Program-made: the position numbers and the translations under genes
The notes under the pieces: generated by a model
Database searches by the model: none
What the model saw: the letters and a program-made list of their open reading frames with translations, nothing else
What the model was told of the DNA's origin: nothing
DNA from: an uncultured Chitinophagales bacterium
GTDB lineage: Bacteria > Bacteroidota > Ignavibacteria > UBA10030 > UBA6906
Assembly: GCA_964550275.1 (NCBI GenBank)
Contig: CAZJYO010000002.1
Coordinates: forward strand, 1-37,186
Direction of reading: 5' to 3'
Length of the DNA stretch: 37,186 nucleotides
In this document: one piece after another, positions 1-7,170 of the stretch
How positions within the stretch are numbered: the stretch's first letter is position 1
Layout of the letters: each line of letters begins with the position of its first letter

Positions 1-30
1 CGTAGAGACGTAGCATGCTACGTCTCTACG
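1..30. repeat. Perfect 30-bp palindrome at the window edge (fold-back / inverted duplication, axis between nt 15 and 16)
   Basis: cgtagagacgtagca|tgctacgtctctacg equals its own reverse complement over all 30 nt and starts at base 1 of the window. Confidence 0.95.
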
Positions 31-117
31 GGTAACCGGTTCAACCACGTTTGCATCCCACCCTCATCTTCAGTAGTTTGAACGCACGAACATTGGGTGA
101 AACACGCAGGGCCGTTC

Positions 118-780
118 ATGAGAATTCTCCTTTTTTCCCTCCTTTCTTTGTTGATTGTTCTACCGCTTGAGGCACAGCAACAGCGGGTCTCCAGCGCGTT
201 CAAAATCGCACGCCTGAAATACTCCGGCGGCGGCGATTGGTACAATGACCCCGGCGCAGAGCCCAATCTGCTGAACTTTGTCCGCCAAACCACCGGCCTT
301 GACGTTGACCCGCGCTATGAATTTGTGGAAATCGCCAGCGAAAACTTCTTTTCCTATCCATTCCTCTTTATTACAGGGCACGGGAATATCGTCCTGGCGG
401 AACCGGAAGTCCGGCGGCTCCGCACCTACCTCGAGAACGGCGGATTCATTTACATTGACGACGATTACGGTATGGATAAAGCCATCCGCAGAGAACTCAG
501 GAAAGTTTTTCCGGAGAAAGAACTTGTGGAGATTCCATTCAGCCATGGTATTTATCACAACCAGTTCGATTTTCCCAACGGCCCACCCAAAACACACAAA
601 CACGATGAAAAACCATCGCGCGGGCTCGGGCTTTTTCATAACGACCGGTTGGTGTTGTTCTACACGACAGAATCAAACCCCAGCGACGGCTGGGTTGATA
701 CACACAACGACCCTGAAGAGAAACGAATTGAGGCGCTCCGGTTCGGAACGAATATCATTGTGTGGGCGTTGACGAATTGA
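118..780 (+). CDS. DUF4159 domain-containing exported protein
   Basis: ORF 97..780. The ATG at 118 gives a clean signal peptide (MRILLFSLLSLLIVLPLEAQ). Motifs RLKYSGGGDWYNDP, YPFLFITGHG and YLENGGFIYIDDDYG are typical of DUF4159, a family found with Bat/MoxR-type clusters. Confidence 0.8.
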   Translation: MRILLFSLLSLLIVLPLEAQQQRVSSAFKIARLKYSGGGDWYNDPGAEPNLLNFVRQTTGLDVDPRYEFVEIASENFFSYPFLFITGHGNIVLAEPEVRRLRTYLENGGFIYIDDDYGMDKAIRRELRKVFPEKELVEIPFSHGIYHNQFDFPNGPPKTHKHDEKPSRGLGLFHNDRLVLFYTTESNPSDGWVDTHNDPEEKRIEALRFGTNIIVWALTN

Positions 781-851
781 TATAACCAGCGTAATCGAAG
801 GCGGCAAGAAGGTTTTACAGAAAGCACTCACCCTCAGTAGTCGGAGACTCA

Positions 852-2390
852 ATGTCCGAACAACCAGCAAGAAAGAACCTCTTTAACCGATCTCTTGATT
901 TTGTCGAGAAAGTCGGGAATGCCCTTCCGCATCCGGCAACACTGTTTGCCCTATTTGCCGCGACGGTGGTTGTCGGGTCGGGAATTGTCGCGTTGCTCGA
1001 TTTTACGGCAATGCACCCGAGCACAGGGAAACCGATCGCACCGGTGAGTCTGCTGAACGCAGACGGCCTTCGCCGGATCGTTACCTCCATGGTCTCGAAC
1101 TTCACGGGGTTTGTTCCTCTCGGCACCGTGCTTGTGGCGATGCTTGGTGTTGGTGTTGCAGAAGGGTCGGGGTTGTTGACTGCGGCGTTGCGGGCGTTGG
1201 TGCTTTCAGCTCCGCGCAGATTCATTACGGTCGTTATTGTGTTCGCGGGCGTCATGTCCAACGCCGCTTCTGAAGCGGGCTACGTGATTCTTATTCCATT
1301 GGGCGCGGTGATCTTCCTTGCTTTTGGCCGTCACCCCATTGCCGGACTCGCGGCGGCGTTTGCGGGAGTATCAGGCGGTTACAGCGCGAACCTGGTCCTC
1401 GGCACCGTGGACCCGCTGCTGGCGGGAATAACGGAAGAGATGGCAAAGATTATCAACCCCGAATACAGGGTCAACCCCGCGGCAAACTACTACTTCATGG
1501 CCGCGTCCACGTTCCTCATTACCATCCTTGGGACGTTTGTCACCGAGAAGATTGTGGAGCCGCGACTGGGAACGTACACCGGCGACGAAAAGGGGATCGG
1601 GATGGAACAACTGAAGCTGGAAGAACGCCGCGGGCTCAAAGCCGCCGGGGCGGTTCTTCTGCTCTGCGGTGTCTTGCTTGGCCTGGCAACAATTCCCGAA
1701 GGAGCTGTTCTACGGAACCCCGAAACCGGCGACATTCTTCACTCTCCTTTTCTGAACGGCATTGTCACGATCATTTTCATGGTGTTTCTGTTGCCGGGGA
1801 TTGCCTACGGCCTGGCGACGAAATCACTGCGGAATGACTCCGCCATCATCAACTTCATGGGCAAATCCATGGGCGGACTCAGCGTCTATATTGTGCTGGT
1901 CTTCTTTGCCGCCCAGTTCGTCGCGTACTTTCAGTGGACAAATCTTGGGCTGATTACCGCCATTAAGGGTGCAGAACTGCTCAAATCGGTCGGGCTCACC
2001 GGTATCCCGCTCATTCTCAGCTTTATTGTTGTTGCCGCGCTGATGAATTTGTTCATGGGAAGCTCCTCGGCAAAATGGGCCGTCATGGCGCCAATTTTTG
2101 TTCCGATGTTCATGTTGCTGGGCTTCACGCCGGAACTAACGCAGGCCGCATACCGCATTGGAGACTCGGTGACGAACGTTGTCACACCGATGATGTCCTA
2201 TTTTGCCCTGATCATTGCGTTCTCCCAAAAATACGCGAAAGATGCGGGCATCGGCACTATCATTGCAACAATGCTTCCCTATAGTATCGTATTCCTGATT
2301 GGGTGGTCCCTGTTCCTTGTCGCCTGGGTGAGTCTCGGCATTCCGGTTGGTCCTGGCGCCGGGTTGTATTTGGGGAATGAACATGAGTGA
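852..2390 (+). CDS. abgT: AbgT family (p-aminobenzoyl-glutamate type) transporter
   Basis: 512-aa polytopic membrane protein. The N-terminus [26 protein letters not shown] is characteristic of AbgT/MtrF. GGAG lies 5 nt upstream of the ATG. Confidence 0.85.
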
Positions 2391-2400
2391 CGGCCGGGGT

Positions 2401-2477
2401 ACACAACGACCCCAAGAGAACGGCCTGAGGTACTCCGCCTCGGAACGAACATCATTGTGTGGGCATTGACGAACTAA
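2401..2477 (+). pseudogene. Relic copy of the DUF4159 gene 3' end (direct repeat of nt 702-780)
   Basis: About 80% nucleotide identity to 702-780 with two 1-nt indels. The last 15 codons still read LRLGTNIIVWALTN-stop, against LRFGTNIIVWALTN-stop in the intact gene. Confidence 0.85.
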
Positions 2478-2479
2478 GC

Positions 2480-5400
2480 ATGCAGACGGAACAGACACAC
2501 ATATCTATCCTCACGCGTCTCGCCGCGGCAAGAACGCGCGATATGAAAATTTCCCTGCTCACCGGCGCGCTTCTTTTTCTTGTCATCAGCGGCGTGATGG
2601 TTATCCTTGTGGTCACCCTTGAAGGCGCGCTGCGATTTGGAATCGCGGGACGTACCGCGCTTTTCTGGTCAACGGTTGTTTTATGTATCGCGTTGTTCGG
2701 CTGGCTCGTTGGCGTTCCGCTTCTGCGGTTTCTGAAAATCGTTCCGCAAGAAACCGATGAGCACACGGCGGCCCGCGTCGGTTCACACTTTCCCCACATT
2801 GCCGATCGCTTGCTCAATACGCTTCAACTGTTCCGCGAGCGGAAAAGCACACTCTATTCGCCATCGCTTGTGGATGCCTCCATTGAAGACGCGGACGCGG
2901 ATATGTCCGGCGTGGACTTTTCCGCGTTCGTTGATACGTCACAAGCAAAACGCACGGCGCGCATCTTCGGCATTGTGGGATTCACCGCGCTCGTTCTTAT
3001 CATTGGTTTCCCGTCGGTGTTTGTTGCCTCAGCGCAAAGACTTCTTCATTACGGAGAGGAATTTGCCGAACCCACACCGTTCAGTTTCGCCGTCGAGCCG
3101 GGAAACGCCGAGGTGGTCAAGGGGCAACCGGTAACCATCAATGTCCGCGTTATCGGGGAAACGAAGGAGCCGGTGCGTCTTCTCAGCCGGCCGCGCGGCC
3201 AGGTCACGTTTGACGATCAGATTCTCGAACGATCCACGGGCGCGGCGCTCAAGCACGAGTTTTCTTCCGTCAAATCATCCACCGAGTACTTTGTGCAATC
3301 CGGCGATGTCCGCAGCCCCGAGTTTACCCTTACGGTTCTGGACAGGCCCGCGCTGAAATCATTGCGGCTTTCGCTCCAGTACCCGGCATATACCAAACTT
3401 GCGCCGAGGGAGCTTGACGAAAACATCGGCGACGTCACAGCTTTGAAAGGAACCCGCATTTCCCTCTCGGTTGAATCCAACAAAGAACTCGCGGAAGTCA
3501 TGATTGTCTTCAATGATTCCACCCGGAAAGCTCTGGATGTGAAGGGTGAGCAAGCCTCAGGATCGATCCCGCTTATGCGGGATGGAACCTATCATGTGTA
3601 CATGCGCGATACCGAGGGATTGACGAACGCCGATCCCATCGAGTACACCCTGCGCGTCACCGCGGACGCATTCCCTGCCGCCGAAATCCTTGTGCCCGGT
3701 CCGCATCTTGACATTGCAGGTGAAGCAAGCCTCAACACGCTTTTCAAAATCACGGATGATTTCGGATTCTCACAACTTCGTCTCGCGTACCGCCTGACGC
3801 AGTCGCGCTATGAACGACCGGCGGAAGAATTCACGACGATTGCGGTGCCGCTGGGTGAGCGATCTTCCACCGAAGAACAAATTCCCTACGTGTGGTCGCT
3901 TGAACCATTGCGCCTCGTGCCCGAGGACGTTGTCAGCTATTACATCGAAGTGTTTGATAACGATCGCGTATCCGGTCCAAAATCTGCACGAAGTGCAACC
4001 CATACGCTGCGTCTTCCATCGCTTGATGAGGTCTTTGCCGATCTGGACAGGGGACATGAGACGAGTCTTGAAAGCATGAAGGAAGCGCTTGAGGAAGCAC
4101 AGGAAGCGAAGAAGGATCTGGATGAACTCCAGCAGGACTTGAGAAAAAATCAGCAGAAGATGGACTGGCAGCAACAGCAGAAGGCACAGGAGCTGGCGAA
4201 GAAATACGAAGAGATCCAAAAGAAGCTGGATGATGTCAACGCGACGGTGGACCGGATGACCGCCGAGATGCAGAAGAACCAGGTGCTCTCCAAGGAGACG
4301 ATGGAGAAATACCAGGAATTGCAGCGGATGATGGAGGAAATGAACTCGCCCGAGTTCACGGACGCGCTGAAGAAACTTCAACAGTCCATGCAACAAATGT
4401 CGCCGGAGCAGATGCGACAGGCATTGCAGGAGTTCAAGTTCTCCGAGGAGAACTTCCGGGAAAGTCTGGAGCGCACGATGAACCTGTTGAAGCGCCTGCA
4501 GATCGAGCAAAAAACAGATGAAGTGGTGAAGCGCGCGGAGGAGATCAAGAACACGCAGGAGGAATTGCAGAAGCAAACCGAACAAACGAACCCGCAGGAC
4601 CGTGATGCGCTGGACAAGCTCGCCAAAGAACAGCAGGATCTGAAGGAACAGCTCGAAGCCCTGGAAAAAGAGATGGCGGGACTCGAGAAGAAAATGGAGG
4701 ACTTTCCCTCCGAGATGCCGCTGGAAGAAATGAGCAAGGCAATGGAGGAAATGGAACAGAGCCAGCTCGATCAGCAGATGCAGGAAATAGCGCAACAGCT
4801 CCAGCAGCAACAGATGTCGCAGGCGATGAAAGGCCAGCGCTCTGCAATGCAAAAGATGGGCTCGATGATGCAGCAGCTCCAGCAGATGCAGAAATCCATG
4901 ATGCAGAACCAGCAACAGCAAGTTTTGAATGCGATGCGCAAGTCGTTGGAGGATATGCTGGAGCTTTCAAAGAGACAGGAAGGATTAAAGAAAGAATCCC
5001 AGTCGCTTGATCAGAACTCTGCCCGGTTCCGCGAGAACGCGCAGGAGCAAATGGACATCATGCGCGATCTTTCGTCGGTGACCCAGGGGCTTTCAGAGCT
5101 TTCACAACGCACGTTCAGCATTTCGCCGGACCTGGGGAAGTCCATTGGCGATGCAATGAGACAGATGGATCAGGCGATGCAGTCGTTGCAACAGCGCAAC
5201 GGCAACATGGCCGGACAGCAGCAGGGCGGAGCCATGGCCTCGTTGAACCAGGCGGCAAGCCAACTGCAGGGCTCGATGAATTCCATGATGCAAGGCGGCT
5301 CATCGGGCATGGGTATGGCGGGTTTCATGCAGCGACTCCAGCAGATGTCATCACAGCAACAGGGCATCAACCAGGGGACGCAAAACCTCGGCGGCATGAC

Positions 5401-5857
5401 GCCGCAACAAGCGGCCGAGATGGGCCGGCTTGCGGGAGAACAGGGCATGGTGCGGAAATCTCTTGAGCAGCTTGCGCGTGAAGCCGCGCAAACCGGTGAC
5501 CTGAGCAAGATGCTTGGCGATCTGAACCGCGCCGCACAGGAGATGCGCGAAGTACAAACCGACCTGGCGCAGGGAAATGTCAATCCGGAAACGCTACGCA
5601 AACAGGAACGCATCCTCTCGCGGCTCTTGGATTCCCAGCGCTCCGCGCGTGAACGGGATTTTGAGAAGAAGCGGCTGGCAGAATCAGGGAAGGACGTACG
5701 CCGGACCGGACCACAGGAACTGAACGCCGCCTCACAGGATCGCGACAGACTTCGCCGCGATCTTCTGAAAGCGATGGAAGAAGGATACTCGAAGGACTAT
5801 CAGGATATTATCCGCAAGTATTTTGAAGCGCTTGAACAGGCGGAACCGAATCGGTAA
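2480..5857 (+). CDS. Large membrane-anchored coiled-coil protein with a Q/M/E/K-rich central region (possibly DUF4175-like)
   Basis: ORF 2459..5857. The ATG at 2480 lies 2 nt after the relic DUF4159 stop. There are N-terminal TM helices, a beta-rich region up to about aa 520, then about 500 aa of heptad-like low-complexity sequence (MQKMGSMMQQLQQMQKSMMQNQQQQ). The C-terminus is ...YSKDYQDIIRKYFEALEQ. Confidence 0.75.
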   Translation: MQTEQTHISILTRLAAARTRDMKISLLTGALLFLVISGVMVILVVTLEGALRFGIAGRTALFWSTVVLCIALFGWLVGVPLLRFLKIVPQETDEHTAARVGSHFPHIADRLLNTLQLFRERKSTLYSPSLVDASIEDADADMSGVDFSAFVDTSQAKRTARIFGIVGFTALVLIIGFPSVFVASAQRLLHYGEEFAEPTPFSFAVEPGNAEVVKGQPVTINVRVIGETKEPVRLLSRPRGQVTFDDQILERSTGAALKHEFSSVKSSTEYFVQSGDVRSPEFTLTVLDRPALKSLRLSLQYPAYTKLAPRELDENIGDVTALKGTRISLSVESNKELAEVMIVFNDSTRKALDVKGEQASGSIPLMRDGTYHVYMRDTEGLTNADPIEYTLRVTADAFPAAEILVPGPHLDIAGEASLNTLFKITDDFGFSQLRLAYRLTQSRYERPAEEFTTIAVPLGERSSTEEQIPYVWSLEPLRLVPEDVVSYYIEVFDNDRVSGPKSARSATHTLRLPSLDEVFADLDRGHETSLESMKEALEEAQEAKKDLDELQQDLRKNQQKMDWQQQQKAQELAKKYEEIQKKLDDVNATVDRMTAEMQKNQVLSKETMEKYQELQRMMEEMNSPEFTDALKKLQQSMQQMSPEQMRQALQEFKFSEENFRESLERTMNLLKRLQIEQKTDEVVKRAEEIKNTQEELQKQTEQTNPQDRDALDKLAKEQQDLKEQLEALEKEMAGLEKKMEDFPSEMPLEEMSKAMEEMEQSQLDQQMQEIAQQLQQQQMSQAMKGQRSAMQKMGSMMQQLQQMQKSMMQNQQQQVLNAMRKSLEDMLELSKRQEGLKKESQSLDQNSARFRENAQEQMDIMRDLSSVTQGLSELSQRTFSISPDLGKSIGDAMRQMDQAMQSLQQRNGNMAGQQQGGAMASLNQAASQLQGSMNSMMQGGSSGMGMAGFMQRLQQMSSQQQGINQGTQNLGGMTPQQAAEMGRLAGEQGMVRKSLEQLAREAAQTGDLSKMLGDLNRAAQEMREVQTDLAQGNVNPETLRKQERILSRLLDSQRSARERDFEKKRLAESGKDVRRTGPQELNAASQDRDRLRRDLLKAMEEGYSKDYQDIIRKYFEALEQAEPNR

Positions 5858-5945: not shown

Positions 5946-7118
5946 TTGCGCGCACTCATCAACCGAATTCTCAAAAACCACGAGAGTCACACCCTCGCCG
6001 ATCTCACTCCCGCCGTCTGTACTCATGATCGTATTCAATCGGTTCTTGCCGGACTTGTAAGAAAAAGCAGCGGACTGCTTGCCAGCGAATCTGTGGGCAC
6101 TTCCTTTGAAGGCCGGAGTATCAACCTGGTACGTTGCGGCAACGGGAAAACTCGTGTTCTGCTCTGGTCGCAAATGCACGGCGATGAACCCACCGCCACG
6201 CTCGCGCTGATGGATATTTTCTCTTTGCTCGCGAGCCAGGGAACCCGTTTGTCATACCTTCGAAGTATCCTCGAGAAGTGTACGCTTCTCTTCGTTCCCA
6301 TGTTGAATCCGGATGGCGCCGAAAAGCGCACGCGACGAACAACAACACGCATCGACATGAACCGCGACGCTCGCGCGCTCGTTACACCGGAAGCAAAAAT
6401 CCTCAGAGGCCTTCAGCAGAAATTCAAGCCCGCGTTTGGTTTCAACCTTCATGACCAGGAGCTGAGTTGCGTCGGCGCCACGCCTAAAGTTACAGCCATC
6501 GCGCTCCTCGCCCCTGCACGTGATGTCAAGAAAACCACACCGCCGGTTCGCCGCAAAGCGATTCAAGTTGCATCGTGTATTGCACAGGCATTGTCCCACG
6601 CGGCAAAGGGTCATGTCGCGCGATATAGCGACGCGTTCGAACCCCGCGCGTTCGGTGACAACATGCAGGGCTGGGGAACAAGCACGGTGCTCATCGAATC
6701 CGGTCATTGGCCCGGCGATCCGGAAAAAGTATTTATCCGGCGCTTGAATGTTGTGGCGATTCTTGTTGCTCTCGACTGCATTGCTCGCGGTTCGCTGAAT
6801 CAACTCAACACACAACACTATGACGGTTTGCCGGAGAATGGAAAGAGCATTGTCGATGTGCTCATCCGCAATCTCACCATTCTGCATCCATCGGGAAAAT
6901 CCTTCGCGGCCGATCTTGGTCTCTCTGTCTCCTCGTCGGCGATGTGGAACCGGGGTTTGGACGACGTTGTCATCAAGGAGTTTGGCGATCTCAGCACGTT
7001 TGCGGCATTACACGTTATTGACGGGAAGAACCACGTTGTCCGCTTGGGCGACATTCATATCGATCAGACCATAAAGAAAGACGAGCTTCAGGAAATTCTC
7101 CGGGTAGCCCTTCCTTGA
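5946..7118 (+). CDS. M14-family zinc carboxypeptidase-like protein
   Basis: LLWSQMHGDEPTAT (HxxE zinc motif), FVPMLNPDGAE and IDMNRD. The start is TTG and is uncertain. Confidence 0.75.
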   Translation: MRALINRILKNHESHTLADLTPAVCTHDRIQSVLAGLVRKSSGLLASESVGTSFEGRSINLVRCGNGKTRVLLWSQMHGDEPTATLALMDIFSLLASQGTRLSYLRSILEKCTLLFVPMLNPDGAEKRTRRTTTRIDMNRDARALVTPEAKILRGLQQKFKPAFGFNLHDQELSCVGATPKVTAIALLAPARDVKKTTPPVRRKAIQVASCIAQALSHAAKGHVARYSDAFEPRAFGDNMQGWGTSTVLIESGHWPGDPEKVFIRRLNVVAILVALDCIARGSLNQLNTQHYDGLPENGKSIVDVLIRNLTILHPSGKSFAADLGLSVSSSAMWNRGLDDVVIKEFGDLSTFAALHVIDGKNHVVRLGDIHIDQTIKKDELQEILRVALP

Positions 7119-7143
7119 TATTCCTTCGTGATAGTTGTACATT
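7115..7143 (+). promoter_or_regulatory. Sigma70-like promoter TTGATA-17-TACATT upstream of the ECF sigma gene
   Basis: -35 at 7115-7120, 17-nt spacer, -10 at 7138-7143, about 28 nt before the ATG at 7171. Confidence 0.45.
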
Positions 7144-7170
7144 TCTTCTGTCCCCGAAACCACAAAACCC

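Follow-up and report, generated by a model that had tools for sequence, protein, structure and literature searches.

How does a single transporter gene come to lie between two genes that are otherwise neighbors, followed by a second, broken copy of the end of the upstream gene? The question is raised by the 5′ end of a 37,186-nucleotide stretch of DNA from an uncultured Chitinophagales bacterium (contig CAZJYO010000002.1, positions 1–37,186; hereafter, the window), in which abgT, encoding an AbgT-family transporter, stands between a DUF4159 gene and a DUF4175 gene. In general terms, the locus is probably explained by a lateral gain of abgT, anchored on homology within DUF4159, in which the resident DUF4159 end was displaced to the far side of the insert. 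The features of the locus are as follows.

97–780, + strand: intact DUF4159 gene (Pfam PF13709); the reading frame opens at GTG 97, with an ATG at 118, and ends at 780
676–780, + strand: copy A, the last ~35 codons and stop of the functional DUF4159 gene, which aligns to 2379–2477
781–851, + strand: DUF4159–abgT spacer, its proximal part resembling that of clade C1 (described below)
852–2390, + strand: abgT, an intact AbgT-family transporter gene of 512 amino acids (Pfam PF03806)
2373–2385, + strand: apparently illegitimate joint of the abgT 3′ end to DUF4159 codon about −38, placed by the limits of homology
2379–2477, + strand: copy B, a pseudogene relic of the DUF4159 3′ end (nhmmer, blastn)
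2480–5857, + strand: DUF4175 gene, 1125 amino acids (Pfam PF13779), the native downstream neighbor

Pfam confirms all three genes: the product of 97–780 matches the whole PF13709 domain (E 2.9e-61, 206.9 bits), AbgT matches PF03806 over its full length (residues 14–504, E 2.9e-204, 679 bits against a cutoff of 27), and DUF4175 matches PF13779 (E 3.8e-21).

The repeated end of the DUF4159 gene

A recurrence of the DUF4159 end behind abgT was the core of the original prediction, made from the sequence alone, and it is real. When 2374–2477 was compared with the window by blastn, copy A (702–776) and copy B (2401–2473) aligned over 75 nt at 84% identity, with 2 gaps and an E of 7.4e-17; every other match in the window had E > 1. 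An ungapped 55-nt core (722–776 versus 2419–2473, 84% identity) is the longest direct repeat that a repeat finder reports in the first 6 kb. An nhmmer DNA profile was also made from the final 150 nt of the DUF4159 genes of 78 other genomes, the window being left out. It matched 2379–2476 through profile positions 39–149 (E 1.4e-13); copy B is thus a genuine DUF4159 3′ end of ~98 nt (37 codons). The start of the repeat, first placed at 2401, is therefore near 2379, and copy B overlaps the last four codons of abgT and its TGA stop (2388–2390), which lies in relic-derived sequence.

The first half of the relic is out of frame, with two 1-nt deletions and a 5-nt gap relative to copy A and an 11-nt gap relative to the family consensus. 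Its last 15 codons are intact and read LRLGTNIIVWALTN-stop, and the stop (2475–2477) lies 2 nt upstream of the DUF4175 ATG at 2480, exactly as first described. Within this tail, the two copies differ at third positions and in the stop codon, as predicted, and additionally at one first position (TTC/CTC, F to L), where the strains vary. The longest exact run common to both repeats is 14 nt (ATCATTGTGTGGGC). Copy A has lost two codons in frame (DGWVD--THNDP; window 685–720) where the relic has its larger deletion, and no other relative examined has a gap at this position.

Could the layout be a chimera, produced when the assembly merged a strain that has abgT with a co-occurring strain that lacks it? 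A contig end is near: just 96 nt precede DUF4159 in the window, and they open with an odd palindrome of 30 nt. Against this, near-identical sequence is present in sand, wetland, bioreactor, and other metagenome runs, and both junctions are covered collinearly by independent assemblies from at least four studies, with independent contigs spanning 676–830, 2039–2423, 2330–2477, and 2359–2609; the concern that either junction might be chimeric is not borne out. A 5,526-nt contig from run X4 (depth 13) spans 400–2859 with 108 substitutions and no gaps. The X4 strain is ~96% identical to the window and has the same architecture, including the frameshifts of the relic, which a chimera would not produce in common. 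Because a strain diverged by ~4% shares both architecture and frameshifts, the layout is not a chimera, and we give that explanation almost no credence. Excised (joined) forms were not found among the contigs of other runs, which cannot reveal rare variants. The palindrome itself, a perfect 15+15-nt repeat at the very first bases of the window (1–30; CGTAGAGACGTAGCA followed by TGCTACGTCTCTACG), looks like an assembly-end artefact rather than biology, since the contig of a related strain runs ~2.7 kb further upstream.

Ancestral gene order and the phylogenetic position of abgT

The gene order was compared across 80 loci found with the DUF4159 protein, all from metagenome-assembled genomes (MAGs) of Ignavibacteriota/Bacteroidota type. 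DUF4159 is directly followed by DUF4175 in ~70 of the 80, and the two are adjacent in the three nearest relatives (L001, L245, and L246), with stop-to-ATG gaps of 1–5 nt. L001 shares 80% amino acid identity with the window in DUF4159 and 67% in DUF4175, L245 and L246 are 79% relatives, and these nearest relatives also carry the window's downstream genes (peptidase M14, sigma factor). The DUF4159 protein of the window itself has no exact counterpart on record. This synteny shows that DUF4159 directly before DUF4175 is the ancestral layout, in agreement with the former adjacency that had been deduced from the relic.

Apart from the window, abgT lies between DUF4159 and DUF4175 only in clade C1, whose layout is DUF4159–spacer–abgT–spacer–DUF4175, without a relic. 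This arrangement is found in L007, L010, L011/L244, L242/L243, L249, and L250/L251, while L241 and L247/L248 are rearranged C1 loci. The nhmmer profile detected no relic traces in the abgT–DUF4175 spacers of L007, L010, L011, L242, L244, L249, and L250, and no DUF4159 relic follows abgT in any C1 locus, including L241. Had relatives uniformly carried abgT here without the repeat, the resemblance between the two copies might have been put down to chance; only some do, and they belong to the donor-type clade, which does not make the similarity coincidental.

The tree of AbgT conflicts with that of the flanking gene. The DUF4175 tree was built by neighbor-joining on 1,088 sites with 300 replicates, and the AbgT tree on gap-free alignment columns, with the following bootstrap values.

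DUF4175 tree, window with L001: 93%
DUF4175 tree, abgT-bearing genomes with L009 (clade C1): 100%
DUF4175 tree, window with L241 and L242: 0%
AbgT tree, window with L241 and L242: 97%
AbgT tree, C1 excluding the window: 0%

The window AbgT is 90% identical to those of L241 and L242 over gap-free columns and 88% over the whole protein (P0002/L241, P0003/L242), and L241 and L242 are 92% identical to each other; for DUF4175, the corresponding identities are 61% (window versus L241/L242) and 76% (L241 versus L242). The inserted DNA is therefore foreign to its surroundings, AbgT falling in C1 (97%) and the flanking genes with the window's own clade, C3 (93%). Because AbgT nests inside C1 while DUF4175 groups with that of the abgT-less L001, a C1-type donor appears to have passed abgT laterally to the window lineage, where it landed at the orthologous site. 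Such a secondary insertion had been anticipated; the use of the orthologous site argues for a homology-guided integration.

Vertical descent offers another account of the same distribution, in which abgT and the duplication arose in the ancestor of C1, C2, and C3 and were repeatedly lost, perhaps by recombination between the repeats, with the relic kept only in the window lineage. Direct repeats would permit precise excision, and one locus, L009 (8669–8695), belongs to C1 by both DUF4175 and DUF4159 yet has neither abgT nor scar, only a 22-nt spacer, which indicates that clean loss or allele replacement occurs. However, the window AbgT is placed within C1 alongside L241/L242 (97%) and never outside it (0%), and its DUF4175 with L001 (93%). 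It would take at least four separate clean losses (L001/L245/L246, L003/L005, L002, and L009), and a neutral relic of such age would be unrecognizable, since abgT is saturated at fourfold-degenerate sites even among C1 members. Thus, vertical descent is very unlikely.

Junctions, direction, and course of the event

The left junction appears to be homologous and in frame within DUF4159: the gene is intact and passes without a seam into a C1-like spacer. The proximal part of this spacer (781–851), CGGAGACTCAATG, resembles the L241 and L242 spacers (CCGGAGCTCCAATG and CCGGAGTTTGCATG, respectively), the motif being ATG-proximal, and the spacer is the fastest-changing stretch between strains, with 7 of 71 nt differing in X4. 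The right junction appears to be illegitimate, the penultimate codons of abgT being joined to DUF4159 codon about −38. AbgT homology ends at ...GLYLG (2375/2377) and DUF4159 homology begins at 2379 (nhmmer); read by eye, the joint possibly holds a GAA(T) microhomology. The window AbgT ends in ...GLYLGNEHE-stop, compared to ...GLYLGK-stop, ...GLYLDK-stop, and ...GLYLERK-stop in relatives. Thus, abgT has lost its own stop, and the present TGA arose in relic sequence (AGC GAC to AG TGA C).

The direction of the displacement can be approached through the states of the tail.

Tail Ala codon: GCG in all nine C1 loci; GCA in L001, GCT in L245, GCA in L246; GCG in copy A; GCA in copy B
Tail stop codon: mostly TGA in C1; TAA in L001, TAG in L245, TAA in L246; TGA in copy A; TAA in copy B

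The junction between the relic and DUF4175 is of C3 type as well, i.e., TAA, 2 nt, and ATG, compared with TAA-G-ATG in L001, TAA-T-ATG in L246, and 22 nt in the C1 member L009. These few sites fit a copy B tail that would be the resident end and a copy A tail that would be donor-derived, and the synonymous nature of the tail differences would follow from two sequences having diverged as working genes in different lineages. Between the two origins first put forward for these differences, acquisition from a relative is favored, both by the place of AbgT in a foreign clade and by the GCG/TGA of copy A as opposed to the GCA/TAA/2-nt gap of copy B. Aligning the copies to orthologues, as had been suggested, assigned neither by overall nucleotide identity, where the differences are within noise (62–80%), while the two tail sites point to copy B as the resident.

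We propose the following course. The window lineage, an uncultivated one of Ignavibacteriota/Bacteroidota type, would have begun with DUF4159 immediately before DUF4175, and the donor would have belonged to the related clade C1, with abgT already directly downstream of DUF4159. The incoming DNA may have consisted of a 3′ portion of DUF4159, the spacer, and abgT. Its DUF4159 portion would have paired with the resident gene as a homologous anchor, and the opposite end, which lay within the final codons of abgT, would have been fused illegitimately to the resident DUF4159 at a point ~37 codons short of the stop. The product would be an intact DUF4159, an abgT running into the relic as far as a new stop, and a displaced resident 3′ end abutting DUF4175.

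For a ~100-nt duplicate to be retained, the crossover must lie upstream of the illegitimate joint or the substrate must be circular, and two routes can be envisaged. (i) Homology-facilitated illegitimate recombination (HFIR) of a linear fragment, with a homologous crossover upstream of codon −37 and the illegitimate joint at the abgT end. (ii) A Campbell-type single crossover between the resident tail and a circularized unit of tail, spacer, and abgT, which would generate direct repeats by construction. The second route would need no coincidence of crossover and joint, it would fit a DUF4159 that looks native over most of its length, and L241 carries such a unit; it would, however, need recombination over ~100 nt at 75–88% identity, which is expected to be rare.

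All that is left of DUF4159 in L241 (4845–4958) is a 3′ fragment of ~100 nt immediately before abgT, with unrelated genes preceding it, and abgT is followed by a 627-nt spacer (6531–7157) and then DUF4175. The 5′ breakpoint of this fragment falls within ~18 nt of the 5′ end of the window relic, by the conserved GACGGCTGG motif. The DUF4159 fragment joined to abgT in L241 and the scar-free absence of abgT from L009, in an otherwise abgT-bearing clade, hint at a more general system, in which the last ~100 nt of DUF4159, the spacer, and abgT would travel among Ignavibacteriota as an integrase-free, gene-end-anchored cassette, with the conserved DUF4159 tail serving as attachment homology and recombination between tails reversing the insertion. 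We regard this extension as speculative and rather improbable.

Several observations weigh against a donor origin of the copy A tail or, more broadly, against the lateral, homology-anchored gain. Over 104 nt, the best match of copy B is copy A (74%, compared with 62–72% for orthologues), and both copies have a deletion at one position after GACGGC(T/C)GGG and an ‘EEKR’-like stretch not seen in C1 or C3; on these grounds, both could be native paralogues. The 100-nt repeat carries too little phylogenetic signal for a firm assignment of either copy, the diagnostic tail sites number just two, and position 2465 is polymorphic among strains. A donor tract in DUF4159 is undetectable, and neither sliding amino acid identity, nucleotide informative sites, nor clade-diagnostic residues located a crossover. 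In the diagnostic-residue test, which compared three C3 with eight C1 sequences, 8/8 sites are of the own-clade (C3) type, all of them in the first ~70 of 199 aligned residues, i.e., the first third; as the last 130 residues hold no diagnostic sites, the crossover cannot be mapped and no donor tract is visible. The trees are neighbor-joining trees with bootstrap, not likelihood-based. The fourfold-degenerate sites of abgT are saturated relative to the nearest known relatives (33–44% identical), which implies that the actual donor is unsampled. Lastly, the GC content at third codon positions of abgT (0.656) lies within the range of 20 other window genes (0.574–0.677) and its codon usage is not deviant; the comparison that had been recommended for this purpose gives no sign that abgT is foreign, which a donor of the same phylum would lead one to expect.

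The first of these observations give substance to a model in which both copies are native, a foreign spacer and abgT having been inserted at a staggered break or by template switching, with a ~100-nt target duplication and subsequent decay of copy B; the lack of an integrase or transposase suits it too. Yet the tail differences are nearly all synonymous, which fits divergence as coding genes (we estimate P at about 0.03–0.09 under neutral decay), and the tails are C1-type in copy A and C3-type in copy B. Moreover, every known abgT gene that the clade carries at this locus is already coupled to the end of a DUF4159 gene, and the L241/L242 spacer motif is similar; given this linkage and motif, the donor fragment most likely carried homology. 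We therefore consider a native origin of both copies unlikely and favor the lateral gain with displacement of the resident end.

The relic, comparable systems, and further observations

The displaced end shows the marks of decay. Strains differ in the relic by L>F (2439), T>M (2446), W>R (2460, run X2), and one synonymous change (2465), i.e., three of four substitutions are nonsynonymous, compared to 14 of 20 listed abgT differences at third positions; around the start of DUF4175, the strains also differ at 2479 and by the insertion of an A behind 2475. The predicted RNA fold has a z-score of 0.10, with no special structure, and an Rfam scan of window 1–3000, spacer and relic included, gave no matches. 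Because the relic is frameshifted and accumulates nonsynonymous strain differences, the evidence says that it is a decaying pseudogene scar without coding function.

Whatever its origin, the relic might nonetheless be under selection, either as the translation-initiation context of DUF4175 or because read-through of the abgT TGA would end 2 nt before the DUF4175 ATG. The last 15 codons are intact, the relic lies in the frame of abgT with no stop until 2475, and the ancestral 1–5-nt gap between stop and start is suggestive of coupling. A sigma-70 promoter and terminator scan, ill-suited to Bacteroidota-type promoters, found nothing between the three genes on the + strand, including no terminator-like site between abgT and DUF4175. 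However, strains vary in the start region itself, at 2479 and by the extra A after 2475; T>M and W>R fall within the ‘intact’ part; strain divergence of the relic (3/77 nt) is not clearly below that of the spacer (7/71 nt); and there is no stable RNA structure (z 0.10). The second origin put forward in the original prediction, that the relic is kept because it holds the initiation region of DUF4175, thus finds no support. We consider selection on the relic in either form doubtful, and read-through from the abgT TGA toward the DUF4175 start is a low-probability proposal.

How does the locus compare with known routes of gene insertion? As predicted, 781–2400 contains only abgT, with no transposase, integrase, or terminal inverted repeats. 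The locus is not a transposon or insertion sequence: no transposase is present, no inverted repeats stand at 781 or 2400, and the direct repeat is ~100 nt long, where a target duplication would measure 2–14 bp. Nor is it an integrase element, for it has neither the tyrosine or serine recombinase nor the att core of an island of the e14/icd type: the insert encodes only abgT, and the repeats are 84% identical with indels and share an exact run of 14 nt at most.

A close mechanistic precedent is HFIR, in which one homologous anchor is combined with one illegitimate end (PMC3240628; PMC5361080 and references therein). HFIR is described from bacteria with natural transformation and from conjugation in E. 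coli (de Vries and Wackernagel 2002; Prudhomme et al. 2002; Meier and Wackernagel 2003, as cited in PMC5361080; PMC3240628). The window shares with HFIR the foreign DNA, the absence of a dedicated recombinase, and a diverged relative as donor; a single homologous anchor and a junction with microhomology (0–8 nt in HFIR) may be common to both as well. Unlike HFIR, the window case is deduced from a natural genome rather than observed, and, where HFIR typically replaces or deletes resident DNA, it keeps a ~100-nt resident duplicate. Campbell-type integration similarly yields a U-H-X-H-D order with direct repeats bracketing the insert, each copy a donor/recipient hybrid, but no circular intermediate or plasmid is in evidence for the window, and ~100 nt at roughly 75–88% identity is very short and diverged for a RecA-dependent crossover.

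A close structural parallel is icd/icdC, the attachment site of e14 (and phage 21) in E. coli K-12, where the element brings a replacement 3′ end and the original end becomes a C-terminal pseudogene (Hill et al. 1989, as described in PMC13626634). In both cases, the target gene stays intact and its original 3′ end persists as a pseudogene beyond the insert; most differences between the copies are conservative or synonymous, and recombination between them can excise the insert. In the window, the DUF4159 gene would be kept intact by an insert-borne 3′ end, the direction being read from few sites. By contrast, e14, a prophage of 15 kb, has its own site-specific integrase and recombines at a defined att core, whereas the window insert measures 1.7 kb, carries abgT only, and has no integrase and no identical core above 14 nt.

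A third likeness is to the ‘sequential displacement’ reported for type VI secretion system effector–immunity, Rhs, and contact-dependent inhibition loci, where newly arrived modules displace the resident 3′ ends downstream (PMC5361080). There, too, the module is anchored on the conserved upstream part of a gene, the resident end persists as a remnant, and the history is read from comparative genomics. Those loci are toxin–immunity arrays under diversifying selection whose displaced parts are often functional immunity genes, while the window cargo is a single housekeeping-type transporter gene and the displaced piece a dead 3′ fragment.

The window locus is therefore a clear natural instance, in an uncultivated lineage, of a known kind of recombination scar, and not a new system. 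It is a clean, datable footprint of a single transport or metabolic gene moving between diverged uncultivated bacteria without mobile-element machinery, with a conserved gene end as the landing pad and the resident end surviving as a scar. Gene-end fragments right upstream of the next conserved gene are searchable and could be used to count homology-anchored gains in MAGs. For annotation, three points deserve notice: the fragment behind abgT is a pseudogene, the C-terminus of AbgT is not native, and the DUF4159–DUF4175 pair, tight elsewhere, is broken.

Further features were seen in the relatives and in the window. In L247 (905–2600) and L248, DUF4159 and abgT are followed by unrelated minus-strand genes (cytochrome P460, thioesterase, GSDH), and DUF4175 is absent from the ~4 kb downstream of abgT, showing that the downstream side of the locus also rearranges. 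AbgT genes of the same clade (84–90% amino acid identity) occur in unrelated contexts in L161 (4001–5800) and L082, with no adjoining DUF4159 fragments; in L161, abgT is followed by a gene for a Tat-signal asparaginase/isoaspartyl-peptidase-like protein, possibly a hint to the class of AbgT substrate. The abgT match of L010 (8714–10232) is in two pieces (query residues 1–60 and 86–507), which suggests a frameshift, local divergence, or an assembly error in that MAG. Within the window, the central part of DUF4175 (4770–5360) contains glutamine-rich CAG/CAA repeat families with a strong purine skew, a low-complexity composition typical of the family. The abgT–DUF4175 spacers of L241 (6880–6930) and L007 (10380–10425) share a hairpin-rich element (…CGGGGCGATGCCCCGACCTGTAATATGTAACGCCTTCGGCGT…) with inverted GAATCCCTTTCAGGGATT-type arms, which suggests a small repeat resembling miniature inverted-repeat transposable elements or repetitive extragenic palindromes (MITE/REP-like).

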